Assembly: GCA_003574845.1 (NCBI GenBank)
Contig: NDHY01000004.1
Location: forward strand, 12,723 to 76,722
Direction of reading: 5' to 3'
Length of the DNA: 64,000 bases
Origin: a candidate division NPL-UPA2 bacterium Unc8
GTDB lineage: Bacteria > NPL-UPA2
A program made the position numbers and the translations under genes. Under the pieces are notes generated by a model that did not search any database, was not told where the DNA came from, and saw only the letters and a program-made list of their open reading frames with translations. Below are positions 6,426 through 31,624 of the stretch, piece after piece. Numbering within the stretch: position 1 is the stretch's first letter; the number at the start of each line of letters is the position of its first letter.

Positions 6426-6454
6426 ATTTTATATTACCAATCAAAATCGAACAC

Positions 6455-6483
6455 TTGACTTTTTTCCAGGATGGTTTTATAAT
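6455..6483 (+). promoter_or_regulatory. Consensus sigma70-like promoter: TTGACT, 17-nt spacer, TATAAT
   Basis: Hexamers read at 6455-6460 and 6478-6483, about 30 bp outside the right IS end and about 135 bp upstream of the MFS gene. Confidence 0.4.
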
Positions 6484-6618
6484 GAGGCTAAGCCGAGGTG
6501 CTAAGGAGTCACCATAAACCGGAGTGGTCAAAACTTTTTTGGAAAAACTAAACTGTTACGCTGGCAGAAATTTGCGTCACAGTGCAGTAGGTTATATAAG
6601 GAATATAAGGAGCAGAAG

Positions 6619-7902
6619 ATGAACAAAAGAGATAATTTGGGGTTATTCAGGCAATTAGCTTACAGCTCCGGGTATATGGGCTTAGCGCTTACCAGTGAGC
6701 TTATAGGCATGTGGTTAATTTTCTTCTATGCGGCGCGGGAAGAAATGGTCTTTGTGCCTGTTCTGCTTATGGGCGGTATCGTTTTTTTCGGCAGGGTTAT
6801 GGATGCTGTTAGCAGTCCTGTTATAGGATATTTTAGCGATAGATCAAGAAGCCGCTTTGGCAGGAGAATCCCGTTTATTGCCATAGGAACGCTGTTTTTA
6901 GTTGTAACCTTAATTCTTATTTTTCACCCGCCTGTTCCTGCTGAATCGGTAATTAATGCCATCTATTTAATAGTGGTATTAGGGCTTTTTTGGATTTTCT
7001 TCAGTGCTGTAGCTACGCCTCATCATGCTCTTCTCCCAGAGCTTGTTTCTACAGGTCGCGAACGGATAAACCTGGCAAAGTATGTAGGTATTTTTGGCGT
7101 TCTGGGTCTTTTTATTGCTTTTGCGGGCTCAGGTTATCTGATAGATCATCATGGCTTTGGATTAATGGCTATTGTTATGGGGGCTATTGTTTTTGTCAGT
7201 TTATATATCCTGGTGATATCTATTAAAGAGAGTCCTTGGTCCAGCGCAAAAGAAGTGGACTTATCATTTATTGCAGCAATGAAGCATTGTTTTATGAACA
7301 AACCGTTTCTTTATTATGTCTTTGCCTTTACTCTCATGATGATGGGGCTTAGTCTTCTTGCGGCTGCCGTTCCTTTTATAGTTACGGTATTGATGGGAGC
7401 AGGAGAGGAATGGGCAGGATATGCAATGGGGATGATGATGGTGGTGGCACTCTTGTCTTTTCCAATGATTAATTATCTCGCAAAGAAATTTGGCAAGAAA
7501 ATTGTTTTTGCTGGTTCCATCTTATTCTTCAGCGTTTTTGCGAGCTTACTTGGCACTATTGGAATGTTACCGATATCGCCCTTTTACCATGGATTATTTC
7601 TTATCGTCATCATGGGGGCCCCGGTTGCCAGTGCTTTGATGCTGCCTTTTGCAATAATTGCCGATGTAATTGACCATGATGAGACGATAACTGGATTTAG
7701 GAGAGAAGCATGTTATTTTGGGGTGCAAGCGTTAATATGGAAGTCAGGAGCAGGTATTTCCGCTTTAATTCTAACTCTGTTGCTGCATCATTTTGGCAAA
7801 ACCGCAGCAGAGCCACTCGGGATTATACTGGCCGGGCCGGCGGCAGGGCTCATACCTCTTATTGGTTTTTTCGTGTTCCTCAAATACCCATTTGAGAAAT
7901 GA
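6619..7902 (+). CDS. MFS transporter, glycoside-pentoside-hexuronide (GPH) cation symporter family
   Basis: 12 predicted TM helices and the GPH signature DRSRSRFGRRIPF after TM2. Confidence 0.8.
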   Translation: MNKRDNLGLFRQLAYSSGYMGLALTSELIGMWLIFFYAAREEMVFVPVLLMGGIVFFGRVMDAVSSPVIGYFSDRSRSRFGRRIPFIAIGTLFLVVTLILIFHPPVPAESVINAIYLIVVLGLFWIFFSAVATPHHALLPELVSTGRERINLAKYVGIFGVLGLFIAFAGSGYLIDHHGFGLMAIVMGAIVFVSLYILVISIKESPWSSAKEVDLSFIAAMKHCFMNKPFLYYVFAFTLMMMGLSLLAAAVPFIVTVLMGAGEEWAGYAMGMMMVVALLSFPMINYLAKKFGKKIVFAGSILFFSVFASLLGTIGMLPISPFYHGLFLIVIMGAPVASALMLPFAIIADVIDHDETITGFRREACYFGVQALIWKSGAGISALILTLLLHHFGKTAAEPLGIILAGPAAGLIPLIGFFVFLKYPFEK

Positions 7903-8116
7903 ACAACGGTTCAAGCCTATTGATGCCACAAGCCCACTAAATGTTTACTATAAGTTTGTCATGTTATTACAAACACTGCCGATAAGTAAAGATAAAAGGG
8001 TTCAGGATTCAGGGGTCAGCATTTTCGGATCGTCGGTAAAATAGTTTTCTGAAAGGCATAAACTTTTAACTTGCACTTTTGACTTTTAACTTTTGAATTA
8101 GTTCTTAAATACGTAA

Positions 8117-9331
8117 ATGAATAAGGAAAAACAGCAAATTCTCAAGGAAAAGTTAGGCCTTCTTCCTCTATCTGTTTCCAAGATAGAGGGAACACCCCGT
8201 ATCTGGGTAAATGCAGTATCAGTAGGGGAGGTTGTCGCCGCCGGCTCAATCGTCAAATTGCTAAGAGAGACTTATCCTTCTGCCTCTATTATCCTTTCTA
8301 CGGGAACAGAAACGGGTCGGAAAACGGCAGAGCAAACTATTAAAGAAGTAGATGGCTACATCTACTTTCCACTTGATTTCCCCTGGGTTGTCCGGCGCGT
8401 TTTAAGAATTCTCCGCCCTCATCTTTTTATTACTATAGAGACAGAAATCTGGCCAAATTTTTTAAGCATCGCCAGAAAAATGGGAATTAAAACGATGCTT
8501 GCAAATGGGAGAATCTCTGCAAGGTCATTCAATCGCTACCGACGCACGCGCTTTCTCTGGAAAAAGGTGCTTGGCAACTTTGATGCAATGAGTATGATTT
8601 CAAAGATAGACGCCGAAAGAATTAAATCAATAGGGGCAGAGCCAGAGAAAGTATTTATAAGTGGTAACTCAAAGTATGATACTTTGATTTCTCGGGCAAA
8701 TCCGGGATTCAAAGCAGAAATAAGAAAGCTTTTACAAATAGAGCCTTATGAGGCAGTCTTTCTTGCTGCCAGCACTCACGATGGAGAGGAAAAGATTATC
8801 ATTAAAGCATATAAAAATTTGCTTAAGGAGTTTCCACATCTGATTTTTATTATTGCCCCCAGACATATTAAAAGAGTGGCATCGGTTGAGAAGGCACTCC
8901 GCAGCGAAGGACTTTCTGACTTTATTCATCGTAGCAGCCTGCAGCATACCCGGAGAAAATCTCCAATAATTATTCTGGATGTAATTGGAGAACTTTTTTA
9001 TGTTTATAGCCTGGGAACGATTATTTTCTGTGGAGGAAGTCTGGTTAAAAAAGGTGGTCAAAACATACTTGAGCCTGCTTGCTGGGGAAAGGTTGTTTTT
9101 TATGGTCCTTCAATGGAGGACTTTCTTGTAGAGAGAGAGCTTTTGGGAGGGGCTGGAGCAGGGATAGAGGTCAAGGGAGCAGCTTCCCTTGTAAGAGAGG
9201 CGATGGTGCTCCTCAATAACCCGGAAGAACGAAGGCAACGCGGAGAAAAAGGAAGAGAAGCTATCCAAAAAATGGAAGATGCCGCTAAAAAAAATGTGAG
9301 ACTTGCTCAAAAGCTCCTGAAAGACTTTTGA
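8117..9331 (+). CDS. waaA: 3-deoxy-D-manno-octulosonic acid (Kdo) transferase
   Basis: N-terminal WVNAVSVGEVVAAGSIVKLL...STGTETG and the C-terminal glycosyltransferase fold of KdtA/WaaA. Confidence 0.85.
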   Translation: MNKEKQQILKEKLGLLPLSVSKIEGTPRIWVNAVSVGEVVAAGSIVKLLRETYPSASIILSTGTETGRKTAEQTIKEVDGYIYFPLDFPWVVRRVLRILRPHLFITIETEIWPNFLSIARKMGIKTMLANGRISARSFNRYRRTRFLWKKVLGNFDAMSMISKIDAERIKSIGAEPEKVFISGNSKYDTLISRANPGFKAEIRKLLQIEPYEAVFLAASTHDGEEKIIIKAYKNLLKEFPHLIFIIAPRHIKRVASVEKALRSEGLSDFIHRSSLQHTRRKSPIIILDVIGELFYVYSLGTIIFCGGSLVKKGGQNILEPACWGKVVFYGPSMEDFLVERELLGGAGAGIEVKGAASLVREAMVLLNNPEERRQRGEKGREAIQKMEDAAKKNVRLAQKLLKDF

Positions 9332-9406
9332 CAACGACTTCTTTTCTATGATAGGCTACTCCTGAAAATCAGGAATCGGAGTGGGATTGAGCCCCAGAAT
9401 CTTGAA

Positions 9407-10909
9407 ATGAATAATCAAAAGCAACAAATACTGCGGACAATCAAGGGACTGAGCTCGGAAATGAGAGTCACTTCAGAGGATGTCTCTATTATTCTTGCTG
9501 CCGGGCATGGAAAGAGAATTAAGTCCGAGATTCCCAAGATGCTTCACAAGATATGGAACATTCCCACTATCTGCCGAGTAGTTGATACAGTTGGTGATGT
9601 GCTGGGCAACAGCAGGATAGTGGTAGTGGGAATAAAGGGTGATGAGGTTGCAGGGCAAATCGGGAAGAGAGATGGCATAACATTTGCCTACCAGGAAGAA
9701 CAGAAAGGAACGGGGCACGCCTTACAAATAGCCCTGAATACTTTTGGAGGCAAAGAATACAATGGAAACATCTATGTCTTTCCAGGAGATATGGGACTGA
9801 TAACAACAGAGATAGTCAGAAAATTTAAAGAAGAGTTTGAACGCTCTCATCCGGATATGTTAGTTCTGACCGGCATCTATGAAGAAAAAATAGAAAACAA
9901 TTACTATGGTCGGGTATTGCGAGTTCCTGAAAAGGACCGCACAGGAAATTCAAGTGGTAGTAACCACGGATTAATTATTGAAATAATAGAATACAAAGAC
10001 ATACTGGCTCTGGATAGTGATTATACAACGAGATTTAATGGAAGAGAATACTGCTTCACCAGCTCCGCTCTTCTGAACATAGGAGAATTTAACAGTGGGG
10101 TTTATGCCTTCAGAGGCAAATTGGTAAAGAAGTATATAACGGAGATAACTAAAAAGAACGTTCAGGGAGAATTTTACATAACGGAGCTTATCAAAATATT
10201 CAATCGCCACCAGCTTTCGGTTGGAGCATTAAAGATGGCAGACCACACCGCACTCCTCGCTTTCAACAACAAGTCCGCTCTTAGAGATATGGAGGGAATT
10301 GCCCGGAGTCGAGTATATAACAAGATAGGAAATATCATCACTATTGAGAACAAAGAAGATTTTTTTCTTGCTGACACAGTAGTAGAAAGCATCCTGACTC
10401 TGGACAAAGAAAAAGGGCCACTTGACATTGTCATTGAGAAAGGAGTTTACCTCTACGACGGAGTAGAGCTGAACAAAGGAATACACATTAAGAAAAATAG
10501 TGTTCTCAACGGAAATATTAAGCTCGGGGAAGGAGTAATCATTTGCGAAAATGTTTCCTTGAGCACTTATCCGGAACAAGTGATGAAAATAGGGGACCAC
10601 ACGGAAATACTCAAAGGCAATATCATCAAAGGGAATACTCACATTGGAAGGGATTGCCGTATTGAATCATCCGTTAACATAACCGGCGGCGATGAATACC
10701 CAACAAGAATTGGCGATAATGTTACCATTAAGGGAACAAGCTATGTCTTTGGCTCAATCATTGAGAATGACCAGTGGATAGAACACTCGATCATTAAGAA
10801 GAAGTATATCAGAAAAGTAATTAGTGATGGCTCTGTTCAGCAAATAAAACATTATCTGCCTCCCCCGGAGGGAATTTCTTCCATCAGTAACCTGCCTTAC
10901 TCCTCATAA
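9407..10909 (+). CDS. GlmU-like sugar-1-phosphate nucleotidyltransferase with C-terminal left-handed beta-helix acyltransferase domain
   Basis: ILAAGHGKRIK...PKMLHKI, QEEQKGTGHAL and GEFYITELIK are homologous to the GlmU uridyltransferase. C-terminal hexapeptide repeats follow. 500 aa. Confidence 0.65.
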   Translation: MNNQKQQILRTIKGLSSEMRVTSEDVSIILAAGHGKRIKSEIPKMLHKIWNIPTICRVVDTVGDVLGNSRIVVVGIKGDEVAGQIGKRDGITFAYQEEQKGTGHALQIALNTFGGKEYNGNIYVFPGDMGLITTEIVRKFKEEFERSHPDMLVLTGIYEEKIENNYYGRVLRVPEKDRTGNSSGSNHGLIIEIIEYKDILALDSDYTTRFNGREYCFTSSALLNIGEFNSGVYAFRGKLVKKYITEITKKNVQGEFYITELIKIFNRHQLSVGALKMADHTALLAFNNKSALRDMEGIARSRVYNKIGNIITIENKEDFFLADTVVESILTLDKEKGPLDIVIEKGVYLYDGVELNKGIHIKKNSVLNGNIKLGEGVIICENVSLSTYPEQVMKIGDHTEILKGNIIKGNTHIGRDCRIESSVNITGGDEYPTRIGDNVTIKGTSYVFGSIIENDQWIEHSIIKKKYIRKVISDGSVQQIKHYLPPPEGISSISNLPYSS

Positions 10910-22029: not shown

Positions 22030-23709
22030 TTGTTTATAGCGCCATCCTATTTCCTTAATAAGAAGGGACTGAAAATGCGGAAATCCTACAAGCAAACTTC
22101 TTATACCCTGTTGAAGAATGGGCTTGTTGTTGACGGGACAGGGCAAAAGGGGATGACCGGCAATGTCCTCATTAATGGGCCCAATATTGAAGAAATTTCC
22201 CGGCAAGCAATTGATGTAGACGGTGAAATAATAGATTGCACAGGCAAAGTTATTGCTCCTGGCTTCATTGATATACACTCACATCAAGACTGGTTTCTTC
22301 CGTCAAAAGAACATAATAAATTCACATCGCCATTTACCTCTCAGGGGATAACCACCTTCATAGGAGGAAACTGTGGCTTTGCTCCCGCAGGCTTCAAAAA
22401 AGATAGCCCACATAAGGGCGAGATTGAGCATACTCTCTTTAGATTCTTCAGGGCAGGGCTTGATAAGCTGCCATGGGACTCTATTGAGGAATATTTCAAA
22501 CATCTCTCGCGCGAAGGCATAAGCCATAATCTCTCAAACTTCGCGGGCTATAATACAACCCGGGGTTCCATAAAAGCACTTAAGCCCGACCCCATGAGAG
22601 CTGATGAAATGAAGGATTTGCTCTGGTTGCTTGAAGAAGCTATGGACCAGGGGGCAAAAGGAGTATCTTTGGGCTTACAATATGAACCTGGTATCTTTGC
22701 CACTACGAACGAGTTAGGAGAGATTGCCAGGCTGGTAAAAAGAAAAAATAAAATCATAACAGTTCATGCAAAGGCACTTTCAGCATTATCAGGCAGCTAT
22801 CCACTAAGTCTTAATAAATCGCATAACTTGCAGGCAATTCAGGATATGATTGACCTTGCGCGTGATACCGGAGTAAGGCTTCAGTTTTCTCATCTGATAT
22901 TCGTAGGTACCAGGACATGGGGAACACACGAGAAGGCGCTGGAGCTTTTTGACAGAGCCATGCTTGAGGGTATTGATATAAAATTTGATACTTATGCACA
23001 TCACGGCGGAGCATCTCTCCTGTATGTAGTTTTGCCAGAGTGGTTTATTGTCAGAGCGCCTGAGGTGTATAATAACAGCTTGGCGTTGCGCAGACTCAGG
23101 TTTGAAATGATGTTCGCACAAAGGCTTCTGGGTTTCGGGTATGGAGAAATGCAGGTAACTTATGCGAACCACCCTGAATTAAATGAGTATAATGGAATGT
23201 TTCTTAGCGATATAGCGAGTAAGCGCGGGTTATCACCGTTTGAAAACTTCATTGATTTTATTAAAAGGGGCAATCGCGGAGTTAAAGTTCTTATGCACAA
23301 GCACAGCAATCAGAAGATTATTGAGGCTCTCATGAAACACCCGGCGTCTCTTTTTATGACTGATGCATGGTCAGAGCCCGAGGGGCAGCAAAATCCTGGC
23401 GCTTTTGGCACTTTCCCGAGGTTTTTGCAACTTGCGAGGGATAAAAAGCTGCTTTCTCTTGAAGAGACAATTCATAAGATGACAGGGGCTTGTGCATCAA
23501 GGGTTGGCATCAAAGACCGAGGCACATTAAAAGAAGGTCTGGCAGCTGATATTACTGTTTTTGACTGGAATACGATAAGAGACAATACAACGGTAGAGCA
23601 GCCAGCCGAGCCCCCTACAGGGATAGAATTTGTGTTTATAAACGGCGCACAAGTTCTGGGAAATGGAAAAGCAGATGGTTCACTGCGCCCAGGAGTAATT
23701 CTAATATGA
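22030..23709 (+). CDS. N-acyl-D-amino-acid deacylase (D-aminoacylase) family amidohydrolase
   Basis: GFIDIHSHQDW metal-binding motif and amidohydrolase fold. The likelier start is ATG 22075 (MRKSYKQ) with an AAGGGA SD upstream. Confidence 0.8.
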   Translation: MFIAPSYFLNKKGLKMRKSYKQTSYTLLKNGLVVDGTGQKGMTGNVLINGPNIEEISRQAIDVDGEIIDCTGKVIAPGFIDIHSHQDWFLPSKEHNKFTSPFTSQGITTFIGGNCGFAPAGFKKDSPHKGEIEHTLFRFFRAGLDKLPWDSIEEYFKHLSREGISHNLSNFAGYNTTRGSIKALKPDPMRADEMKDLLWLLEEAMDQGAKGVSLGLQYEPGIFATTNELGEIARLVKRKNKIITVHAKALSALSGSYPLSLNKSHNLQAIQDMIDLARDTGVRLQFSHLIFVGTRTWGTHEKALELFDRAMLEGIDIKFDTYAHHGGASLLYVVLPEWFIVRAPEVYNNSLALRRLRFEMMFAQRLLGFGYGEMQVTYANHPELNEYNGMFLSDIASKRGLSPFENFIDFIKRGNRGVKVLMHKHSNQKIIEALMKHPASLFMTDAWSEPEGQQNPGAFGTFPRFLQLARDKKLLSLEETIHKMTGACASRVGIKDRGTLKEGLAADITVFDWNTIRDNTTVEQPAEPPTGIEFVFINGAQVLGNGKADGSLRPGVILI

Positions 23710-23711
23710 AA

Positions 23712-24371
23712 TTATGTTACTAATGCCTGAATCCGCGTCATGAAATCACTCAGGTTTCCACCGTACTCCGGAGAACCTTCTATTCTCAGATATCCTTTTT
23801 TAACAGCCTCAATCATGCCGACATCTTTCATTATTACGGGAAATGCGCCGTCAACTCCATTGAAATTGAGACGCACGAATGGGCGTCTTTTTGCATAGAC
23901 CCCGCGGCCTGCTTTTGTCCTGCCGGCTCTTACCCTAAGATATGCCGCGATGCCTTCTTCGACCGAAATTTGATATATCCTCTCGGGCTGCTTCTTCGTC
24001 CACCTGACCATTTCAGGGTCCCCGCCTTTGTTATACTGACTTAAAGCGCTGATAATCATATAAAATGCCATTTTTACCTTAAGCCTTTTCTTTTCAGAAT
24101 CCTTGGGTCTTGCATTTGGCATAAGTATCTTCAGGCTTAAAATCAGTCTGAATACCTTTAAGAAAAGACCAACTTTCATTATTCCCTTAATCTTTGGCAT
24201 CACCATCTTTCCGGTAAAGAAGGCGTTCATTTTTGCTGCACTCTTAAAAGTAAAAGTAATGGTTGGGTTATCGCAGATGCCCGGGTCTACCCGAAAATCG
24301 CCATCATTGAATACCAGTACAGGCTCCGATGTCTTTGCCATCTTCGGTAGTATGAAAGAGCACCCTGGCAC
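23712..24371 (-). CDS. SCP2-like (sterol-carrier-protein-2 fold) lipid-binding protein, paralog A
   Basis: C-terminal GYLRIEGSPEYGGNLSDFM resembles the SCP2 C-terminal motif. It is homologous along its length to the ORF at 27784-28572. Confidence 0.5.
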   Translation of the reverse strand: MPGCSFILPKMAKTSEPVLVFNDGDFRVDPGICDNPTITFTFKSAAKMNAFFTGKMVMPKIKGIMKVGLFLKVFRLILSLKILMPNARPKDSEKKRLKVKMAFYMIISALSQYNKGGDPEMVRWTKKQPERIYQISVEEGIAAYLRVRAGRTKAGRGVYAKRRPFVRLNFNGVDGAFPVIMKDVGMIEAVKKGYLRIEGSPEYGGNLSDFMTRIQALVT

Positions 24372-24487
24372 TGACCCCTTTGAATTTCTTTTTCATGCTC
24401 GGGACATCTTCAAGCACTACCTTCATCACCGGCAGGATAGCCCTTAAAATTATTCTTGAAGTAATTAAATCTTTTTCGGTAGCCATA

Positions 24488-25498
24488 TTATATCTCATCT
24501 TCCCAGTCTTCATCTTCTTCAAATTCTTTGCCCATAACCTCTCTTGCCTTCTCAATAATACCATCAGTATCAAGTTTGTAGTGAGAATAGAGATCTTCAG
24601 GATAACCGACAAGGGAATAACAATCAGGAATGCCCACTTTACTAAAAGCGCAACCCTTTCCGCTTGCAGCTATTACATCAGCAACAGCACTGCCAAGACC
24701 ACAATAAATATTGTGGTCCTCAAAGGTTATTATTCTTCGTGTTTCCTCTATTGCCCTGAGCACGGCGTCTTCGTCAAGCGGCTTGATTGTATGCATATTC
24801 AGCACTCGGACGCTTAAGCCGTCTTGCTCCTGAAGAAGTTTTGCCGCCTCAACTGCCTGCCGCACCGTAATTCCGCAGCAAATGAGGGTAATGTCGGCTC
24901 CTTCCTTCACCTCAACTGACTTGCCAATCTGGAAACCATAATCGGCGTTTTCATAAAAAGTTGGCTCAAATCCTCTGCCAATCCTGATGTATACAGGACC
25001 CGGATGCTCAACAGATGCGGCGACTACATTGCCTGTTTCTATTCCGTCAGCAGGCACGACGACGGTCATGTTCGCAAAAGACCTCATAATTGCAAGGTCT
25101 TCGGTACAGTGATGGGTTGAGCCAGCCTGCCCGAATGCCGTTCCGGCGTGAGTTGCAATTATTTTGACATTCAGGTTCTGATAACAAATGTCGGTTCTAA
25201 CCTGCTCGGCAGCCCTCATTGAAATAAATGCCGCCATGGTTGACACAAAGGGAATAAGCCCGGACTTCGCAAGTCCTGCTGCTATGCCGAACATATTCTG
25301 CTCGGCGATACCGACATTAAAGAATCTTTCGGGAAACTTATCGCCAAATTTGCTGATTTTAGTTGATTTCGCAAGGTCTGCGGATAGACCGACAATATTT
25401 AGATATCGTTCTCCTAACTGACAGAGAACCTCGCCGTACACTTCAGCTAAAGTCAAAGCATCGGCGTCATATACCGTCCAGGTTAAACCTTCTCTCAT
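24488..25498 (-). CDS. Transketolase C-terminal subunit (pyrimidine-binding and C-terminal domains)
   Basis: 336 aa matching the C-terminal section of a split transketolase, in the same orientation as the N-terminal subunit gene. Confidence 0.85.
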   Translation of the reverse strand: MREGLTWTVYDADALTLAEVYGEVLCQLGERYLNIVGLSADLAKSTKISKFGDKFPERFFNVGIAEQNMFGIAAGLAKSGLIPFVSTMAAFISMRAAEQVRTDICYQNLNVKIIATHAGTAFGQAGSTHHCTEDLAIMRSFANMTVVVPADGIETGNVVAASVEHPGPVYIRIGRGFEPTFYENADYGFQIGKSVEVKEGADITLICCGITVRQAVEAAKLLQEQDGLSVRVLNMHTIKPLDEDAVLRAIEETRRIITFEDHNIYCGLGSAVADVIAASGKGCAFSKVGIPDCYSLVGYPEDLYSHYKLDTDGIIEKAREVMGKEFEEDEDWEDEI

Positions 25499-25678
25499 AA
25501 GTAACCTCCCTATCTTAAACAGGAGCCAGAATTCAGAATTCAGGAGCCAGGAGCCAGAATTCAGAATTCAGAAGTCAGAAGCCAGAATTCAGAAGTCAGA
25601 ATCTGAGATTTGTCATTTCTATGTGCCTCTGTGCCTTTGTGCCTTTGTGCCTCTCTAATAGCCTACAGCCTACAGCCT
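25499..25678. repeat. Composite tandem-repeat spacer (CAGAAK units, GTGCCTYT units, CAGCCTA units) between the two transketolase subunit genes
   Basis: aggagccagaattcagaattcagg...gtgcctctgtgcctttgtgcctttgtgcctctctaatagcctacagcctacagcc. Confidence 0.8.
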
Positions 25679-26542
25679 TCAACCTTTATACATTCTGTCT
25701 ATTGATTGTTTTGCTTTTTCAATGAGGTCTGTATCAAGGCCCCCATAATGCCACTTCACCTCATTTTCCATGAAGTCAACCCCTTTCCCTTTTACCGTGT
25801 TTGCGATAATCATTACCGGGGCGCTATTTTCACTTCGGGCATATTCAATTGCCTCAGCAATCTCCTGGAAGCTATGCCCATTGATTTCCCTGACGAGCCA
25901 TCCAAAGGCTTTCCACTTGTCTGCAAATGGCTCAAGCCCCATAATCTCTTCTGTCGGGCCATCAATCATCAATTTATTCCTGTCTACAAAAGTAACCATA
26001 TTGGTAACTTTAAAGTGATGGGCTGACATTGCCGCCTCCCAGTTTGACCCCTCATTGCATTCACCATCTCCAAGTACACAATAAGTAAGCCATGATTTCT
26101 TCTGCACCCTGGCGCCAAGAGCCAAGCCAACAGATATTGGAAGACCATGCCCCAATGACCCGGTTGACACATCAACTCCTTTCACTTTAAGACTATCAAG
26201 GTGCATACCAAACGAAGACTTAAAATGATTAAATTCCCTCAAGAGTTCAAAGTCAAAATATCCTTTGCGCGCTAAGATGGCTGCATGACACACTCCAGCG
26301 TGACCCTTGCTTAACACAACCCTGTCCCTGTTTTCCAGTTCAGGGTTATTTGGTTCAATATTAAGATATTTAAAATAAAGAATTACAAGTATCTCTACCA
26401 CGCTCAAAGCGCCGCCAACATGAGCTCCACCTGCCCATCCGGTAATATCAATAATGTCTTTCCTTACTTGGTGCGCTTTCTCTTCCAATTCTTTAATTTC
26501 CTGATCCGTTATTGGCATTTTTCCTCCCTGACTATTAGTCAA
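25679..26542 (-). CDS. Transketolase N-terminal subunit (thiamine-diphosphate-binding)
   Basis: GWAGGAHVGGALSVVEILVILYF...SKGHAG and the GDGE TPP-binding motif; 287 aa. Confidence 0.85.
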   Translation of the reverse strand: MTNSQGGKMPITDQEIKELEEKAHQVRKDIIDITGWAGGAHVGGALSVVEILVILYFKYLNIEPNNPELENRDRVVLSKGHAGVCHAAILARKGYFDFELLREFNHFKSSFGMHLDSLKVKGVDVSTGSLGHGLPISVGLALGARVQKKSWLTYCVLGDGECNEGSNWEAAMSAHHFKVTNMVTFVDRNKLMIDGPTEEIMGLEPFADKWKAFGWLVREINGHSFQEIAEAIEYARSENSAPVMIIANTVKGKGVDFMENEVKWHYGGLDTDLIEKAKQSIDRMYKG

Positions 26543-26548
26543 TGCGTT

Positions 26549-27787
26549 CTACTTGCCAAATTTCCTCTTTACTGCCCTGAAAGCGGCATCTGCTACCTCC
26601 AGAGTTTTTTTTATGTCATCCTCTGTGTGAGCGCAAGAGATAAACCAGTTGTGATGCGGATGAAGAAACACTCCTCTCTTTGCGCACTCGGAACAGAAAA
26701 GTTGACTGCGAATGAAATTATCTTCATTTTTAAATCTCATAAACGGGATTGACGGTGGGCCGGTAATGGAGACTTTTAGATTATGACTCTCTGCAAGCTG
26801 CCCTAATCCATCCTGAAGCATTTTCCCTATCTTAAACATATAATTTATTCCATCAATTGCTTTCAACTCTTCTATGGTAGCAATCGCTGCCGCCATCGGC
26901 GCCCGGGAAAAATAAAAAGTTCCAGTGAAGAAAATCCTGGAAGCTACCTTCCTTAGTTCATCTCTGCCCACACAAGCAGAAATCGGATGTCCGTTTGCCA
27001 TTGCCTTGCAAAAAGTAATCGAATCAGGCTTAAATCCAAAGTATTCATTAGAACCCCTCAGATGCAATCTGAATCCTGCCCTTATATCATCAAGAATTAA
27101 CACAATGCTTTCCTTATTACAGGTGCTCTGAATAATTTCCCAGAACCCGTCTTTGGGGAATTCATGGTCAGCATAAACTGGATGATGGTAAGGAGTCATA
27201 ATAACTCCGGCAATCTCTCCTCTGTATTTATCCACCAATTCTAAAAATCCTTCCGTATCATTCCACTTAAATATCAAAGTGTTCGCTTTATCTTCTTCAA
27301 TTATTCCTCCATATCCGGGGCTGCACCAGGGGTGAGAGCCATGATATTCACTCTGAACCATAATAATTTTCTTCTTTCCGGTGTGTTCCCTGGCAATTTG
27401 AGTGGCATATGTTGTAACATCAGAGCCATTTTTGCCAAAGACTGCCCACTCTGCCACAGACACCAGAGATACCAGATATTCTGCAAGCTCTACCATCTTT
27501 TCGGTAGATAGGTCAAAGCAATCTCCCAGGGCTTTTTCTTTATTAACCACCTCTTTAATTTTTGGATAATTATATCCTAAAATTATTGGCCCGAACCCGC
27601 ACATATAATCAATGTATTCCTGTCCATCAACATCCCAGAACCGACACCCTTCTCCCCTTGCTGCAAAGTAAGGAAAATGCCCCGGAACCATAAATCCAGG
27701 ATGTCTCTGACCGTAAATTCCCCCCGGTATTACATTTCCTGCTCTTTTGAAAAGCTCAATTGACCTATCAAATTTATATGCTTTCAT
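26549..27787 (-). CDS. Class-III PLP aminotransferase (glutamate-1-semialdehyde aminomutase-like)
   Basis: VIPGGIY, WDVDGQEYIDYMCGFGP, LILDDIRAGFR and the CKAMANG Lys align with HemL-family motifs; 412 aa. Confidence 0.85.
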   Translation of the reverse strand: MKAYKFDRSIELFKRAGNVIPGGIYGQRHPGFMVPGHFPYFAARGEGCRFWDVDGQEYIDYMCGFGPIILGYNYPKIKEVVNKEKALGDCFDLSTEKMVELAEYLVSLVSVAEWAVFGKNGSDVTTYATQIAREHTGKKKIIMVQSEYHGSHPWCSPGYGGIIEEDKANTLIFKWNDTEGFLELVDKYRGEIAGVIMTPYHHPVYADHEFPKDGFWEIIQSTCNKESIVLILDDIRAGFRLHLRGSNEYFGFKPDSITFCKAMANGHPISACVGRDELRKVASRIFFTGTFYFSRAPMAAAIATIEELKAIDGINYMFKIGKMLQDGLGQLAESHNLKVSITGPPSIPFMRFKNEDNFIRSQLFCSECAKRGVFLHPHHNWFISCAHTEDDIKKTLEVADAAFRAVKRKFGK

Positions 27788-28572
27788 TTATCCTCCCCGG
27801 GAAGATATTCCATCAGCTTCTCCATAATTATGCTCATCGCTTCAGCGAATGATACAAGCCCGACTATTCTTAAGTCCATTGTCCCCAGTCCCACCATAAA
27901 GTCAATCTCTCCCTGAAACATTTTATAGGCAATGCTCGCATTCTTTATCTGAAATGTAGAAGTGGGAGAAGGATGCTTTCCTTTGGAAGGCAGAAATTTC
28001 CCGTCAGCCATCGTAATATACCCGCAAGGTCCATCAGGCAGTATCTCTACCTGAAAAACTCCAGAGGGAAATCGGGAGATGGTGGCATTAGCTCTTTTAA
28101 TTTTAAAGCTGCCATCGTTCTCTCCCACAACCTTTATTCCCCACAGGAGAGTATAAAGTGTAACTTTCAGATAAAATTTTAAGTTTTCTTCCGTCTTCAG
28201 AAACTCTTCATCAGGTCGCAGGTAACGCTCCATCTTTTTTGTTAGCCTGCTGAAACCCTTGAGCAGCGAGAGGCACCAGAATCCTTTCCAAACTAACGGG
28301 ATAATCTGCTTGCCTTCAAACATCTTATTTAAAGACGAGTGTTTGAGAAAAAATAGTCCAACTGTTGGCATAGGCGCCTTTTCTCTTTTTATTCCCAATC
28401 TGCCGTTTTTGAAAATCAGGCTGACCCTGGGCCCACTCTTTACACCAAGCCGAATAGAGGCGTTCCAATTTTTCGCAATGTCCCCTGCCTCTTCATCAAA
28501 TTCTAATATCTCTTCAAGTTGCGGCAGGATGGCATGCAAATAAAGGTAGGATTTTATCTTTTCTTTATTCAT
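27784..28572 (-). CDS. SCP2-like lipid-binding protein, paralog B
   Basis: C-terminal FMVGLGTMDLRIVGLVSFAEAM is an SCP2-like motif. It is a paralog of 23712-24371 and overlaps the aminotransferase stop by 4 nt. Confidence 0.5.
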   Translation of the reverse strand: MNKEKIKSYLYLHAILPQLEEILEFDEEAGDIAKNWNASIRLGVKSGPRVSLIFKNGRLGIKREKAPMPTVGLFFLKHSSLNKMFEGKQIIPLVWKGFWCLSLLKGFSRLTKKMERYLRPDEEFLKTEENLKFYLKVTLYTLLWGIKVVGENDGSFKIKRANATISRFPSGVFQVEILPDGPCGYITMADGKFLPSKGKHPSPTSTFQIKNASIAYKMFQGEIDFMVGLGTMDLRIVGLVSFAEAMSIIMEKLMEYLPGEDK

Positions 28573-28803
28573 AAATCTTCATCTTTCTAACTTTTGCGTA
28601 GCGATATTTTCAATGTTATATCATACGCAGGACAGATTTTAAAATTAAAAAAATCGGTTTACCTTGACATAAAGGATAATTTGGAGTATTGGAACTTCAA
28701 GAAGACTCCTGCAACTTGCAGAAGTGGAATCTTGATACGGATTAGGGAGTTTTGAGAGAAACAATCTGGTTTCTCTTGAGATGAGAAAGGAGGTAAAGAA
28801 AAA

Positions 28804-29097
28804 ATGAAGGTGTTAATTGGGGGAATAGTAGCATTACTGTTTGGATTGTGGGGATTAATTGGCTGGTGGAGTGAATTTGTAGGCATATTGCAAGGCACGA
28901 TACCTTTCCTTCTACTGGTCGGCGGCTCAATAGCCACTTATGCAGGAATAGCTTCTGCGAAAGATAGAGCGGCCAAGAAGAAAGAAGAAGAGATAAAAGA
29001 AATAGAAAAGAGAGAAGAAAAATTCAAGAAAGAGAAAGAGAAAAAAGAAATAGACAAGGAAAGAAGAAGAGCTCAAGAAAGAAAAGGAAAAGGGTAA
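28804..29097 (+). CDS. Small membrane protein (2 TM) with Lys/Glu-rich tail
   Basis: Strong SD AGGAGGT 9 nt upstream, two hydrophobic helices, low-complexity KE-rich C-terminus. Confidence 0.45.
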   Translation: MKVLIGGIVALLFGLWGLIGWWSEFVGILQGTIPFLLLVGGSIATYAGIASAKDRAAKKKEEEIKEIEKREEKFKKEKEKKEIDKERRRAQERKGKG

Positions 29098-29540
29098 GGG
29101 AAAAAAGAAAGTCGTAAGGAGAAAAGTAGTAAGGAAAAAGTCAGAGACCTGAGTTTCTTTTTTTCCGATTGTTTGTGTTTAGCTTCAAGCATCTTTTCTT
29201 TTGCGCGGCGGGAACGTCTGCGTTTCTGCCTGCGAATTTTCTCAATACGCTGCTTTTCCTCAAGTATAAAACCTTCCTGCCATTTTTCAATAAGGTCTAA
29301 AAGTCTGCGCCGGGCAAGAAAGCGATTTAAAGATTGAGAGCGTTCTATCTGACATTTGACTATAATATTAGTTGGTAGGTGACGAAGAAACACGCAGGTT
29401 GAAGCCTTATTGACCTTTTGTCCTCCAGGACCAGATGAGCGAATAAATTTCTCCTCTAAGTCCTCTTCAGAAACTCCCAATTTTTGCATGCGCTCTTCAA
29501 GCTTCCGTTCCTTATGAGCAGATATATTGAACATAAACAA
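29073..29540 (-). CDS. arfB: Alternative ribosome-rescue factor ArfB (peptidyl-tRNA hydrolase, class-I release-factor-like)
   Basis: SSGPGGQKVNKASTCV GGQ motif plus a basic C-terminal tail; about 150 aa. Confidence 0.75.
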   Translation of the reverse strand: MFMFNISAHKERKLEERMQKLGVSEEDLEEKFIRSSGPGGQKVNKASTCVFLRHLPTNIIVKCQIERSQSLNRFLARRRLLDLIEKWQEGFILEEKQRIEKIRRQKRRRSRRAKEKMLEAKHKQSEKKKLRSLTFSLLLFSLRLSFFPYPFPFLS

Positions 29541-30119: not shown

Positions 30120-30170
30120 CCAAAATCACCCCTGACAAATGGTCAACATTATTCTGATACGACCCCTTAG
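30120..30170. repeat. Solo copy (about 51 bp) of the MITE-like terminal repeat; its terminal CCCCTTA contains the ppcA stop codon
   Basis: ccaaaatcacccctgacaaatggtcaacattattctgatacgaccccttag matches 36579-36629 at about 44 of 51 positions. Confidence 0.6.
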
Positions 30171-31624
30171 CCCAGAAATTTTCTCAAGCTTGCTGCTCTC
30201 AGGATATGTTCTTCCAATTCTTTTGCTTTGTCTTCTTTCAATGAGGTTGCGATGTAATTTGTCACTTCCCTATACTCCTCATCTGGTTGAAAATCACCCA
30301 GAAAATCCACAACTCTTGCCTTAAGGTTTTGCGGCAGGAAAGCAATGTCTGGATTAAAATACCCAATCGCATCTCTTAAATCGTTTTCAAAGTTCACATA
30401 AACCTCTTTGATAAATTGAAAATCGTTATCATCTAAGGCATTCAAGCCTAAAATTTCCGGAGGAAGTCCAATAGAGTAAAGCGCAGCAGTAAATGCTATC
30501 GCTCTTGGCAATGTAATTCCTCCTATGCTGCGTGAATAGCCAAAGAGTCCTATGTGCAGCTTTCTTTTTCTTCTTCCCGGAATGTATTTTGCCACTTTAT
30601 TAATCATCGGCGCCAATTTTACAATCTGACTTACATACTCATCGCTATATTTCCTCATTACCCTCAGGCATTTCTCTTCATCTATCTCCTGCGGCAGGCT
30701 CGTTTTTCTCTCCTGTAATTTCCTTATGGCTTCTCTGACCTCTGCTGGCGGATTATCATATTTGAACGCAGATTGAATGGTAAAAGTATGAGCGCTTGGA
30801 TATTCTTTTGTAACTCTCTCCACAGTTTGCGGTTTGAGATTACCCCTGAAAGGAGCCGAGCCAACTCCCACAATAGGATAAATTTTGACATCAATCTCTT
30901 CTGATAATTTTTGCAATTTCTGAAGAGCGATTTTATTTAAAAGAACAGCGCTAACAAGTCCATAATTCATTGCCGGGTCTGACCTCGCCAGAAAGACCCG
31001 CTGATATTCCACTTTTTTATTCTGCAGGTACGCTCCGGTTATGTTGTGAGCGTCAAGCATGTGCTCCCAATCTTCAAAAAGAGGGATAACATTTATCTTC
31101 TCAGGTTTGAATTCTCCAATCCACTCAGCAATTGTTATATCTTTCTCTCTAAATGATTTATGCTGCTTTCCCACCACAAAATCGCAATAATATCTATAAA
31201 TCCTATCAATACATTCAGAAGAAGCTGTCATGGGCAAAATGACTTCAAATATGGGTGAGGTATCATCTTGATAAAATAACTTAGCGGCATCAAATGACCT
31301 GGGGATGCTATCCAGTGTTTCCAGTAAAATCTTTGCCTCTCCCTTCTCTACGGTTGGGTTTGGAACACGTAAGGTTATAAAAAGGTCCTTACCCAGTCTA
31401 TTTTCCCTGAAAAATGATTCATATTTTGTTAATAATTTTTTAACCACAAAACTATCAACTTCCTTGCCCTCGCAATCCCACATCTGTTCATCGCATCCTA
31501 AGTGCGAAAATGCATAGTATGCTTCCTGGACTTCATCTTCCCCGCCAAGCTCGGTGTGCGCTGCAAAAAACGGAGGACATACATTATCAGGATGTTGCGT
31601 GCTCATGCACTTTGGTATTTTCAC
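30167..31624 (-). CDS. ppcA: Archaeal-type phosphoenolpyruvate carboxylase
   Basis: N-terminal MKIPKCMSTQHPDNV is diagnostic of archaeal-type PEPC; 485 aa. Confidence 0.85.
   Translation of the reverse strand: MKIPKCMSTQHPDNVCPPFFAAHTELGGEDEVQEAYYAFSHLGCDEQMWDCEGKEVDSFVVKKLLTKYESFFRENRLGKDLFITLRVPNPTVEKGEAKILLETLDSIPRSFDAAKLFYQDDTSPIFEVILPMTASSECIDRIYRYYCDFVVGKQHKSFREKDITIAEWIGEFKPEKINVIPLFEDWEHMLDAHNITGAYLQNKKVEYQRVFLARSDPAMNYGLVSAVLLNKIALQKLQKLSEEIDVKIYPIVGVGSAPFRGNLKPQTVERVTKEYPSAHTFTIQSAFKYDNPPAEVREAIRKLQERKTSLPQEIDEEKCLRVMRKYSDEYVSQIVKLAPMINKVAKYIPGRRKRKLHIGLFGYSRSIGGITLPRAIAFTAALYSIGLPPEILGLNALDDNDFQFIKEVYVNFENDLRDAIGYFNPDIAFLPQNLKARVVDFLGDFQPDEEYREVTNYIATSLKEDKAKELEEHILRAASLRKFLG

Follow-up and report, generated by a model that had tools for sequence, protein, structure and literature searches.

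A conserved five-gene cassette combining a FumI-type aminotransferase, a split transketolase and two tandem SCP2-like proteins: a candidate pathway for sphingoid-type amino-diols

Five co-oriented minus-strand genes in the DNA analysed here (the window, 64,000 nucleotides of a contig from the candidate division NPL-UPA2 bacterium Unc8) form a conserved cassette, which we tentatively interpret as a two-module pathway for a long-chain sphingoid-type 2-amino-1,3-diol, most likely a catabolic or detoxifying one. In the proposed sequence of events, the double-SCP2 protein B would bind the water-insoluble amino-diol and pass it to a FumI-type aminotransferase (AT), which would shift the C2 amino group onto pyruvate, yielding alanine and a 1,3-dihydroxy-2-ketone (a "lipid ketose"). 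An alanine dehydrogenase, encoded nearby in many genomes, could regenerate pyruvate and free ammonium. The split, ThDP-dependent transketolase (TK) would then cut the C2-C3 bond of the ketol to give a fatty aldehyde, destined for fatty-acid oxidation, while the C2 glycolaldehyde unit held on ThDP would be handed to an aldose or aldose-phosphate acceptor and thereby enter central sugar-phosphate metabolism. The second double-SCP2 protein, the basic protein A, would take up or deliver the hydrophobic substrate and product, probably while docked on the acidic tail of the transketolase C subunit; a carrier role is probable for both A and B.

All five open reading frames reported in an earlier note on this DNA were found. 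Gene B (positions 27784 to 28572; 262 aa) is the partner of the aminotransferase gene (26549 to 27787; 412 aa) and overlaps it by 4 nt, as had been described (ATGA at 27784-27787). The N subunit of the split transketolase (TK-N, PP domain; 25679 to 26542; Pfam Transketolase_N, E 4e-45) is listed with a TTG start at 26542, but its true start is likelier the ATG at 26518, giving 279 aa, because the orthologues are 279-280 aa long. A spacer of short tandem repeats (25499 to 25678; units of 7, 28 and 8 nt according to TRF), which in the sister contig L091 measures only ~70 nt, separates it from the C subunit (TK-C, Pyr and TKC domains; 24488 to 25498; 336 aa; Pfam Transket_pyr and Transketolase_C). 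Gene A (23712 to 24486), the partner of the transketolase, comes last.

The claim that this arrangement is conserved was borne out. The full order B-AT-TKN-TKC-A is found in 46 of the 57 loci with enough upstream sequence, across at least six phyla, and in 71 of 72 loci A comes directly after TK-C, an arrangement far beyond chance. Sequence and structure comparison, which also established the spread and the recurrent neighbours, divides the cassette into two modules, B+AT and TK+A, each of which also occurs alone: B+AT is found without any transketolase in four loci (L004, L005, L096 and L097), and TK+A by itself in about 11. The hosts are more than 200 bacterial species, mostly anaerobic, and the spread is patchy, with relatives of A in 232 species genomes out of about 185,000. 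Recurrent neighbours are TetR-type regulators (26 + 9 loci) and alanine dehydrogenase (about 18-21), while acyl-CoA dehydrogenase, aldehyde dehydrogenase, acyl-CoA synthetase, 3-hydroxyacyl-CoA dehydrogenase and AFOR appear sporadically; in Ca. Hakubella an operon of AFOR, SCP2, Fe-ADH and an A-like gene adjoins the cassette. In this window, genes for TetR, alanine dehydrogenase and aldehyde oxidation are all absent. Hosts named in the match titles include Desulfatibacillum, Desulfosudis oleivorans, Desulfosarcina widdelii, Desulfoluna and Leptospirales, known as users of long-chain fatty acids or alkanes. Partial support for this lifestyle is found in the literature (PMC4103992).

The aminotransferase is a class-III PLP enzyme (Pfam Aminotran_3, E 8e-38) whose best solved relative is the aminopentol aminotransferase FumI (6HBS, E 2.6e-99, as against 7e-47 for the best GSA aminomutase, GSAM). 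The two proteins are 39% identical with only a single one-residue gap, and the PLP lysine is conserved. The enzyme falls below every NCBIfam cutoff, that of hemL included (TIGR00713: 215 bits, cutoff 527); its top NCBIfam match is the GntE model with 229 bits, the match to FumI reaches 336 bits, and 6'-aminotransferases are found lower down its list of PDB matches. An identity with HemL was therefore rejected: the hemL score is far too low, and the enzyme lacks the GSAM loop and the carboxylate-binding substrate arginine and stands far closer to FumI; on the same grounds the description "GSA-aminomutase-like" given in the earlier note is imprecise. FumI removes the C2 amino group of hydrolysed fumonisin B1, which is an analogue of sphinganine; it prefers pyruvate and has a Km for the lipid of 1.1 uM, and this sole characterised relative works catabolically (PMC3136697). 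It is from the 39% identity to this one characterised aminotransferase, together with the transketolase pocket residues, that we infer the identity of the substrate; its chain length, the direction of flux and the C2 acceptor are likewise proposals.

The transketolase subunits have their closest PDB entries in the split enzyme of Carboxydothermus (TK-N: 6YAK, N chain, E 1e-74; TK-C: 6YAJ, E 7e-79), and the C. hydrogenoformans enzyme, the closest relative of the cassette transketolase, has been verified biochemically (PMC7661550). In E. coli numbering, TK-N retains His26, His66, His100, His261, D155 and N185, and R91 is replaced by Asn in 70 of 70 orthologues. TK-C retains E411, S385, H461, H473 and R520 but has Ala in place of both R358 and D469, Gln in place of E468, Met in place of F434 and Phe in place of L466; Ala at position 469 recurs in 78 of 78 orthologues, and R358 is replaced in most of them, mostly by Ala. 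Judged by alignment, then, all catalytic and C1-hydroxyl-binding His residues are intact and the acceptor pocket is remodelled in a conserved manner: D469 and its partner R91, which read the 2-hydroxyl of sugar-phosphate substrates, are gone, and with R358 so is part of their phosphate site. When R358, S385, D469 and R520 of the E. coli enzyme are engineered, its preference shifts away from sugar phosphates and towards aldehydes of the aliphatic and aromatic kinds (PMC7661550, PMC5073344). A FumI-type aminotransferase next to a transketolase without D469, R91 and R358 strengthens the earlier idea of an interconversion between a hydrophobic 2-keto-1,3-diol and a 2-amino-1,3-diol. Against it stands the retention of the phosphate-site residues S385, H461 and R520. 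D469 is also lost more widely than in the cassette clade: of the 150 closest split TK-C representatives at 50% identity, about half lack it, and its loss marks a non-canonical substrate, not a lipid specifically. Summed over the subunits, the score of the enzyme (249.5 + 261.7 bits) passes the cutoff of 488 set for NCBIfam "transketolase" (NF004559), and the enzyme is thus close in sequence to ordinary transketolases.

TK-C ends in an acidic tail, EFEEDEDWEDEI, at 24491-24526. The tail is conserved as DFEEDEDWEDEV in 77 of 78 TK-C orthologues. Hakubella alone lacks it, and there the A-like gene has diverged (29% identity) and is encoded on the opposite strand. The calculated pI of A is 10.1, and these features together speak for the docking of A on the tail. 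That A and B are paralogues, as the earlier note had maintained, is supported by BLASTP over their full length (21% identity, E 2e-6) and by HHalign, which pairs the N-terminal halves with 99.3% and the C-terminal halves with 92.7% probability. Its assignment of both to the SCP2 fold also stands, since the structural models (pLDDT 90-94) have only SCP2 structures as their top matches; both are predicted to be tandem double-SCP2 folds, and a homologue of A, P0011, is modelled with the same fold (pLDDT 89.6). Pfam SCP2 matches are spread over both the A and the B families, and a Pfam search of the window's own A and B returned zero matches. The C-terminal SCP2-type strings quoted in support of the assignment do occur in both translations, but they are not what establishes SCP2.

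Gene A is split in this window by a +1 frameshift. Its true start, overlooked earlier, is the ATG at 24486, 1 nt past the TK-C stop, and a single-base insertion at about 24318 (TGT[A]CTG), after the codon for Cys56, divides it into reading frames of 60 and 209/219 aa. Intact homologues read DIGAC-L(I/V)F-NDGDF across this site, and with the extra base removed A has 257 aa and is 90% identical to P0011 from end to end. The frameshift is inherited: L094 and L095 (99.1% and 99.5% identical to the window) carry gene A split in the same way. Compared with L091, the repaired gene has a dN/dS of 0.16, like the neighbouring genes. Because of this inherited frameshift, the pathway may be impaired in the window.

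It is conceivable, though on balance rather unlikely, that the cassette handles another hydrophobic substrate, such as some other amino alcohol or aminopolyol with a long chain or an aromatic group (e.g., 1-deoxy bases, aminopolyols resembling toxins, or the head groups of bacterial aminolipids), or that its steps follow another order, with the aminotransferase acting not on the ketol but on the aldehyde that the transketolase makes or uses, and interconverting fatty aldehyde and fatty amine. Modules that occur separately need not share one intermediate, many GSAM-like class-III aminotransferases use aldehydes (GntE being the top NCBIfam match), and the split transketolase-like family is very diverse at position 469. 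There is also a stereochemical argument from general reasoning: canonical transketolase donors are 3S, and the ketone derived from D-erythro-sphinganine would be 3R, so that the natural substrate may have another configuration or structure. On the other hand, FumI, which acts on a secondary carbon beside a carbinol, is by far the closest characterised relative (336 versus 229 bits for GntE), and the tight five-gene linkage argues for a shared pathway. Moreover, His26 and His261, which bind the C1 hydroxyl of the donor, are retained; this points to a genuine 1-hydroxy-2-keto-3-hydroxy donor, the very type of compound that deamination of a 2-amino-1,3-diol yields.

The earlier note had proposed that flux runs in the reverse direction, as a synthesis of sphingoid-type bases without serine palmitoyltransferase. 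Here, A would present a fatty aldehyde, to which the transketolase would add a C2 ketol unit drawn from a ketose phosphate or from hydroxypyruvate; the aminotransferase would aminate the resulting 2-keto-1,3-diol with alanine, and B would take up the product. Both reactions are reversible, the enzyme-level evidence is all direction-neutral, and alanine dehydrogenase, which could furnish the amino donor, is as compatible with either direction as TetR is. An engineered cascade of transketolase and omega-transaminase likewise yields 2-amino-1,3-diols (PMC5813273; cited also in PMC3657141 and PMC5073344), and A is highly conserved between phyla (60-70% identity), as would suit housekeeping lipid synthesis. 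What makes synthesis doubtful is the genomic context, which points instead to the breakdown of sphingoid-type bases into a fatty aldehyde plus a C2 ketol unit. Across 80 loci, the cassette has no recurring neighbour that encodes a fatty acyl-CoA/ACP reductase, an N-acyltransferase, a ceramide synthase, a head-group transferase or a lipid exporter; what does recur is TetR repressors, joined sporadically by genes of beta-oxidation and aldehyde oxidation. The use of long-chain fatty acids or alkanes by the named hosts also speaks for catabolism. B+AT without a transketolase fits the deamination of an external amine better than a final synthetic step, and the catabolic role of FumI (PMC3136697), the patchy distribution and the tolerance of a frameshifted gene A in the window's lineage also speak against synthesis.

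A chance adjacency of ordinary housekeeping genes (a pentose-phosphate split transketolase, HemL for haem synthesis and two unrelated hypotheticals) is highly improbable. The transketolase subunits do jointly reach the NCBIfam model score, their closest solved structure is a genuine transketolase, and the aminotransferase matches hemL models at E about 1e-64. But these hemL scores are less than half of the cutoffs, and the enzyme lacks the GSAM loop and substrate arginine and is far closer to FumI. No transketolase orthologue has kept R91 or D469, and most have lost R358. The gene order is maintained in at least six phyla, along with a dedicated pair of SCP2 paralogues and with TetR and alanine dehydrogenase as neighbours.

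In the searchable literature we found no account of a transketolase-aminotransferase pathway for aminodiols. If we have read it rightly, the cassette is an undescribed route between sphingosine-like amino-diol lipids and fatty aldehydes. With FumI its aminotransferase shares a pattern of indels and the absence both of the GSAM gating-loop insertion and of the carboxylate-binding arginine of the SPVRAF motif.

The five co-oriented minus-strand genes that the earlier note placed at 23712-28572 were recovered by ORF listing and Pfam searches. In transcription order they are B (27784-28572, 262 aa, no Pfam match), the class-III aminotransferase AT (26549-27787, Pfam Aminotran_3), the split transketolase subunits TK-N (25679-26542, Pfam Transketolase_N) and TK-C (24488-25498, Pfam Transket_pyr plus Transketolase_C), and A (23712-24486), which is split by a single-base insertion at about 24318. 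B and AT overlap by the four bases ATGA, as had been claimed. TK-N probably starts at the ATG at 26518, since its orthologues are 279-280 aa long. The 180-nt spacer between TK-N and TK-C (25499-25678) consists almost entirely of short tandem repeats, namely the 7-nt CAGAATT (11 copies) inside a 28-nt unit (2.9 copies), the 8-nt TGTGCCTC (4 copies) and the 7-nt AGCCTAC (2.7 copies); on the sister contig L091, about 70 nt are found at this position. A promoter and terminator scan of 23400-29200 gave no sites above shuffled sequence, so that operon boundaries were not obtained.

The cassette is flanked by genes for GH31, an Amidohydro_3 'D-aminoacylase', an RF-1-domain protein, a phosphoribosyltransferase, an archaeal-type PEP carboxylase, a PfkB kinase and ThiC. 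These are unrelated, housekeeping or sugar genes, and the cassette therefore forms an island. The Amidohydro_3 gene (22030-23709, plus strand) is convergent and abuts the stop of A at 23712. It is syntenic with TK-C and A in four loci (L091, L092, L094 and L095), but was not found in the loci from Desulfobacterota or Spirochaetota. It is conceivable, if purely speculative, that its product is an N-acyl-amide (ceramide-like) deacylase that supplies the cassette. The archaeal-type phosphoenolpyruvate carboxylase (30167-31624, minus strand; Pfam PEPcase_2, E 8e-199) sits in an apparently bacterial MAG (candidate division WS2 / Hakubella-related). The record identical to the window's B comes from a 'candidate division WS2' MAG and that of the A fragment from a 'Syntrophomonadaceae' MAG, while the nearest named relative is Ca. 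Hakubella thermalkaliphila.

Gene A begins with an ATG at 24486, one base past the TK-C stop, that opens a frame of 60 codons. What this frame encodes (MATEKDLITSRIILRAILPVMKVV...) corresponds to the N-terminal part of A-family proteins, and the remaining 209/219-aa ORF lies in another frame. Intact A homologues read ...DIGAC-L(I/V)F-NDGDF, where the window carries the surplus base; once this is deleted, A becomes a protein of 257 aa with 90% identity over the full length to the intact homologue P0011. The same split gene is present in L094 (1185-1959) and L095 (1128-1902), which at 99.1% and 99.5% identity are related to the window, but are not the same sequence. That two related assemblies have it in common argues for an inherited frameshift rather than an assembly slip. 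Comparison of the repaired A with the intact A of the sister lineage in L091 gave a dN/dS of 0.16, which is similar to the values of neighbouring genes (0.07-0.14) and thus indicates that the frameshift is recent.

The earlier note had described A and B as paralogs ending in SCP2-type motifs. They are indeed paralogs, but distant ones (E 2e-6 at 21% identity along their whole length). HHalign pairs their N-halves with a probability of 99.3% and their C-halves with one of 92.7%, and the two halves of B are also homologous to each other (97.8%, E 7e-13). The assignment to SCP2 was right as well, though the motifs quoted for it are not what carries it. The window's own B and A fragments found no match in Pfam or NCBIfam (Pfam SCP2 at E <= 0.1), and SCP2 was therefore established via homologues and structure prediction. 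In the B family, 55 of 56 members match Pfam SCP2 (PF02036; best E 5e-11), and in the A family 45 of 55 do (best E 3e-7), with P0011 scoring 19.9 bits against a cutoff of 21.3. AlphaFold models built from alignments of 55-56 sequences reach a high pLDDT (89.6 in the A family and 93.7 in B) and contain two consecutive helix / beta-sheet / helix units in each protein; both families are predicted to adopt the SCP2 alpha/beta fold. Among the solved structures compared with these models, none matched both halves at once.

The aminotransferase had been taken for a relative of glutamate-1-semialdehyde 2,1-aminomutase (GSAM, HemL), a view that did not hold up. With the NCBIfam hemL model TIGR00713 it scores 214.9 bits where 527.3 are required, and the hemL models remain well under half of their cutoff. 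Its top match in the PDB, by a wide margin, is 'aminopentol aminotransferase' FumI (6HBS, E 2.6e-99, as compared to 7e-47 for the best GSAM). Identity to FumI is 39% with a single one-residue gap, both for the window's AT and for the Desulfatibacillum orthologue. When aligned with E. coli HemL, the cassette enzymes and FumI lack the 12-residue GSAM gating-loop insertion, the carboxylate-binding Arg of SPVRAF and the C-terminal insertion, whereas the PLP lysine column (K261) is invariant. Judged by these features, AT is to be classed as FumI-type, not HemL. The substrate of FumI is hydrolysed fumonisin B1, an analogue of sphinganine, which loses its C2 amino group to give a 2-keto compound and alanine; the enzyme prefers pyruvate as acceptor and has a Km for the lipid of 1.1 uM (PMC3136697).

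For both transketolase subunits, the nearest match is the split transketolase of Carboxydothermus hydrogenoformans, which has been characterised biochemically (ChTK; PDB 6YAK, E 1e-74 for TK-N, and 6YAJ, E 7e-79 for TK-C; PMC7661550). The PP, Pyr and TKC domains are present, as seen from the Pfam domains Transketolase_N, Transket_pyr and Transketolase_C. With positions numbered on E. coli TktA, the residues D155 and N185 of the ThDP/metal motif (GDG...N) and the cofactor-activating E411 are conserved in all orthologues. The catalytic and donor C1-OH histidines H26, H66, H100 and H261 are kept in 70/70 TK-N, and H473 in the TK-C of the window, Desulfatibacillum and Hakubella. R91 is replaced by Asn in 70/70 orthologues and D469 by Ala in 78/78; R358 has become Ala or Thr in most (mostly Ala), E468 is Q/A/S/T, F434 is Met and L466 is Phe. 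The phosphate-site residues S385, H461 and R520 are retained, but the canonical set for sugar phosphates and 2-hydroxyaldehydes (R358, S385, H461 and R520 plus the D469/R91 pair) is incomplete. D469 is the residue that reads the 2-hydroxyl of an aldose, and R358 belongs to the phosphate site. With the equivalog model NF004559 (cutoff 488), the subunits score 249.5 and 261.7 bits, each below the cutoff alone, and the halves sum to 511. We regard the enzyme as a real ketol transferase with an acceptor pocket that appears to be remodelled. A salt bridge joins D469 to R91 (PMC5073344), and mutation of R358, S385, D469 or R520 moves the E. coli enzyme to non-natural, bulky aromatic aldehydes (PMC7661550, PMC5073344).

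We had expected the loss of D469 to be a unique mark of this clade, but about half of the 150 nearest split TK-C representatives at 50% identity lack it as well. Since the loss is frequent in relatives, it argues for a non-canonical substrate in general, not for lipids in particular. Many of these representatives (P0251-P0400) are also without R358, and they display many different residue combinations, which points to a seemingly large and mostly uncharacterised diversity of non-canonical 'transketolases'. The acidic C-terminal tail of TK-C, DFEEDEDWEDEV, is found in 77/78 orthologues as well as in the top representatives P0251, P0252 and P0256, and the only orthologue without it is that of Hakubella. 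It is this tail, not the absence of D469, that is specific to the clade. A is basic (calculated pI 10.1) and would dock on the tail. We infer this docking purely from co-variation, in that Hakubella, where the tail is missing, also has a divergent A-like gene in another position.

The arrangement is conserved. A pattern scan with one genome per GTDB species found a relative of A in 232 genomes, whose hosts include Desulfobacterales, Desulfatibacillaceae, Desulfosudaceae, Desulfoluna, Desulfosarcina widdelii and many Leptospirales, and further other Spirochaetota, Nitrospiraceae, Hydrogenedentota, Verrucomicrobia and Myxococcota. Across the 80 loci that were retrieved, A directly follows TK-C in 71/72 cases, and the full order B-AT-TKN-TKC-A is present in 46/57. 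Eleven loci carry TKN-TKC-A without adjoining B-AT, one of them with B-AT placed divergently, and Hakubella-type B+AT pairs stand alone on four contigs. These separate occurrences indicate that B travels with AT, and A with the transketolase. In one of the stand-alone B+AT loci (L004), a gene for a 55-aa DUF6800 protein (3174-3341) lies between B and AT.

We compared window positions 23712-28572 with the Hakubella locus L001, the stand-alone B+AT loci L004 and L005, and the loci L010-L016, L029 and L091. The window's B and AT are of Hakubella type (65% and 79% identity), whereas its transketolase (77-84%) and A (67-69%) resemble Desulfobacteraceae loci that have no adjoining B-AT. The cassette is a mosaic, which suggests that two independently mobile modules were joined recently. 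On L091, TKN-TKC-A with an intact A (87% identity) stands beside the same aminoacylase gene and has no B-AT; a 269-aa ORF upstream of TK-N on this contig was tested as a B homologue and is not one.

Clustering of all flanking ORFs of the 80 loci showed that the only frequent neighbours are TetR-type regulators, in 26 + 9 loci, and alanine dehydrogenase, in 18 loci by this clustering and in up to 21 by other counts; both precede the cassette in Desulfatibacillum aliphaticivorans and Desulfosudis oleivorans Hxd3. Acyl-CoA dehydrogenase, aldehyde dehydrogenase (in Desulfoluna), acyl-CoA synthetase, 3-hydroxyacyl-CoA dehydrogenase and SDR genes occur sporadically. Genes for an acyl reductase, an N-acyltransferase or lipid export do not recur among these flanks. 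In the window itself, neither TetR nor alanine dehydrogenase nor the other accessory neighbours were found. The Hakubella locus carries on the opposite strand (5507-10106) genes for an aldehyde:ferredoxin oxidoreductase (AFOR), a 140-aa single-domain SCP2 protein, an Fe-alcohol dehydrogenase, a 33-aa ORF and the divergent tandem SCP2 protein that resembles A at 29% identity; this AFOR/SCP2/Fe-ADH operon converges on TK-C.

Taken together, the reading that we favour, if tentatively, is that the cassette serves the catabolism or detoxification of sphingoid-type long-chain bases, with a fatty aldehyde and a C2 ketol unit as products. AT would deaminate a 2-amino-1,3-diol to a 1,3-dihydroxy-2-ketone, which the transketolase would cleave to the fatty aldehyde and the C2 unit, the latter being passed to a sugar (phosphate) acceptor. 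A 1,3-dihydroxy-2-ketone is the functional group that transketolase cleaves, and the retained C1-OH histidines fit such a donor; the absence of the R91/D469 pair agrees with a leaving group that is an un-hydroxylated alkyl aldehyde. This reading is argued for by the SCP2 proteins, the TetR control, an operon logic like that of taurine degradation, and a host range with degraders of fatty acids or alkanes. The putative pyruvate-dependent deamination of a long-chain 2-amino-3-hydroxy lipid by AT has indirect support from the alanine dehydrogenase adjoining about 18-21 related loci, though none is found in the window.

Canonical transketolase donors are 3S, but D-erythro-sphinganine would give 3R, a stereochemical caveat to a sphinganine-derived donor. 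A different hydrophobic amine, or a different order of the steps, is the next reading to be considered and has a limited but real chance of being correct. It is rather unlikely, by our estimate, that the chemistry runs in reverse towards the biosynthesis of sphingoid-type bases, as the earlier note had proposed. This reverse route is formally identical to the engineered transketolase/transaminase route to amino-diols (PMC5813273). The cassette would then be a natural de novo route without serine palmitoyltransferase, an equally doubtful proposition, in which a lipid-adapted transketolase gives a fatty aldehyde its 1,3-dihydroxy-2-keto head group, the FumI-type transaminase aminates it, and the tandem SCP2 proteins act as obligatory docked substrate-channelling subunits. 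If this were true, Desulfobacterales, Leptospirales, Hakubella/WS2 and others would hold an unrecognised class of aminodiol lipids. That these are housekeeping genes is highly improbable, with AT far below the hemL cutoffs and the canonical transketolase residue set broken.

Some other systems were considered and set aside. One is the acetone pathway of Desulfococcus biacutus, which depends on ThDP and is found in related sulfate reducers; the enzyme induced there, however, is of the COG0028 acetolactate-synthase type, not a transketolase (PMC4103992). The loss of D469 and R91 is a misfit to polyhydroxylated substrates, which argues against the sulfoquinovose 'sulfo-TK', the glycolyl-ACP-forming transketolase-like enzymes and AniP/AniQ of anisomycin synthesis. 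These are not known to involve SCP2 proteins or a FumI-type aminotransferase.

The searchable literature gave no description of the cassette, or of a transketolase step in long-chain-base metabolism. All parts come from known families; measured against that literature, the novelty lies in their combination, in the tailed transketolase subfamily and in the tandem SCP2 proteins as partners. If the proposed function holds, this would be the first ThDP/transketolase route for degrading (or making) long-chain sphingoid bases, requiring no ATP, oxygen, S1P lyase or serine palmitoyltransferase, and it would explain the use or detoxification of a major class of membrane lipids of eukaryotes and Bacteroidota by anaerobic bacteria of sediments and the subsurface. 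The enzyme would represent a natural transketolase subfamily with a pocket for aliphatic aldehydes, a target of protein engineers for two decades, and the cassette a natural counterpart of the synthetic transketolase-transaminase cascade for chiral amino-diols. Two conserved 'hypothetical' tandem-SCP2 families, each with hundreds of clusters, would become enzyme-coupled lipid presenters, and there would be a hint at what comes after FumI in the breakdown of fumonisin. Cultured strains (D. alkenivorans AK-01, D. oleivorans Hxd3, Desulfosarcina widdelii and Desulfoluna limicola) offer a direct test.

Compared with known lipid presenters of the SCP2 fold, such as SCP2/SCPx, UbiJ/UbiT and the C-terminal domain of the alkylsulfatases SdsA1, Pisa1 and YjcS, A and B differ in being a tandem duplication in one chain of about 260 aa and in being genetically tied to AT and the transketolase, and their ligand binding is putative. 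AT has its indels in common with FumI from the fum cluster of Sphingopyxis sp. MTA144. However, FumI converts a 1-deoxy base to a methyl ketone, not to a 1-hydroxy ketol as proposed here, and its host is an aerobic alphaproteobacterium. Among the fum genes named in the papers covered here (the esterase gene fumD and the tricarballylate genes fumE, fumF and fumG), there is neither a transketolase nor an SCP2 gene.

The transketolase has the two-chain layout of ChTK (PP | Pyr + TKC) and the conserved ThDP, metal, catalytic and C1-OH residues of canonical enzymes. Where E. coli TktA and human TKT have R91, R358, E468, D469, F434 and L466, it has N91, A358, Q/A468, A469, M434 and F466, and unlike them it carries the conserved acidic tail and has an obligatory SCP2-type gene directly downstream. 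ChTK shows none of these substitutions (PMC7661550). Some of the positions that have changed naturally are those altered in engineered E. coli variants (D469T/E/Y, R358, R520Q, S385Y), which accept non-phosphorylated, non-hydroxylated aliphatic and aromatic aldehydes (PMC5073344, PMC7661550), whereas the natural enzyme has kept S385 and R520. Coupled to a pyruvate/alanine transaminase, transketolase yields 2-amino-1,3-diols (PMC5813273). Such a synthetic cascade with an omega-transaminase is formally the reverse of the catabolic pathway proposed here, but the engineered systems are laboratory constructs with short, soluble substrates and no carrier proteins. No natural operon counterpart to them was known.

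In taurine degradation, the class-III aminotransferase Tpa (taurine:pyruvate aminotransferase) uses pyruvate, the alanine dehydrogenase Ald recycles it, and the ThDP enzyme Xsc (sulfoacetaldehyde acetyltransferase) breaks up the carbonyl product. This operon logic is mirrored by TetR, Ald, AT and the ThDP enzyme in Desulfatibacillum and Desulfosudis, though the substrate class is another one, Xsc is not a transketolase, SCP2 proteins are lacking there, and Ald is absent from the window. With serine palmitoyltransferase on the one hand and sphingosine kinase plus S1P lyase on the other, the cassette would have the class of substrate and product in common (long-chain base <-> fatty aldehyde + C2). 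In known metabolism, such bases are made by a PLP-dependent Claisen condensation and degraded by a retro-aldol cleavage of the phosphorylated base, with the C2 unit leaving as phosphoethanolamine. By contrast, the cassette would combine transamination with ThDP-dependent ketol cleavage or transfer, without ATP or phosphorylation, and would hand on the C2 unit as the ketol unit of a sugar.
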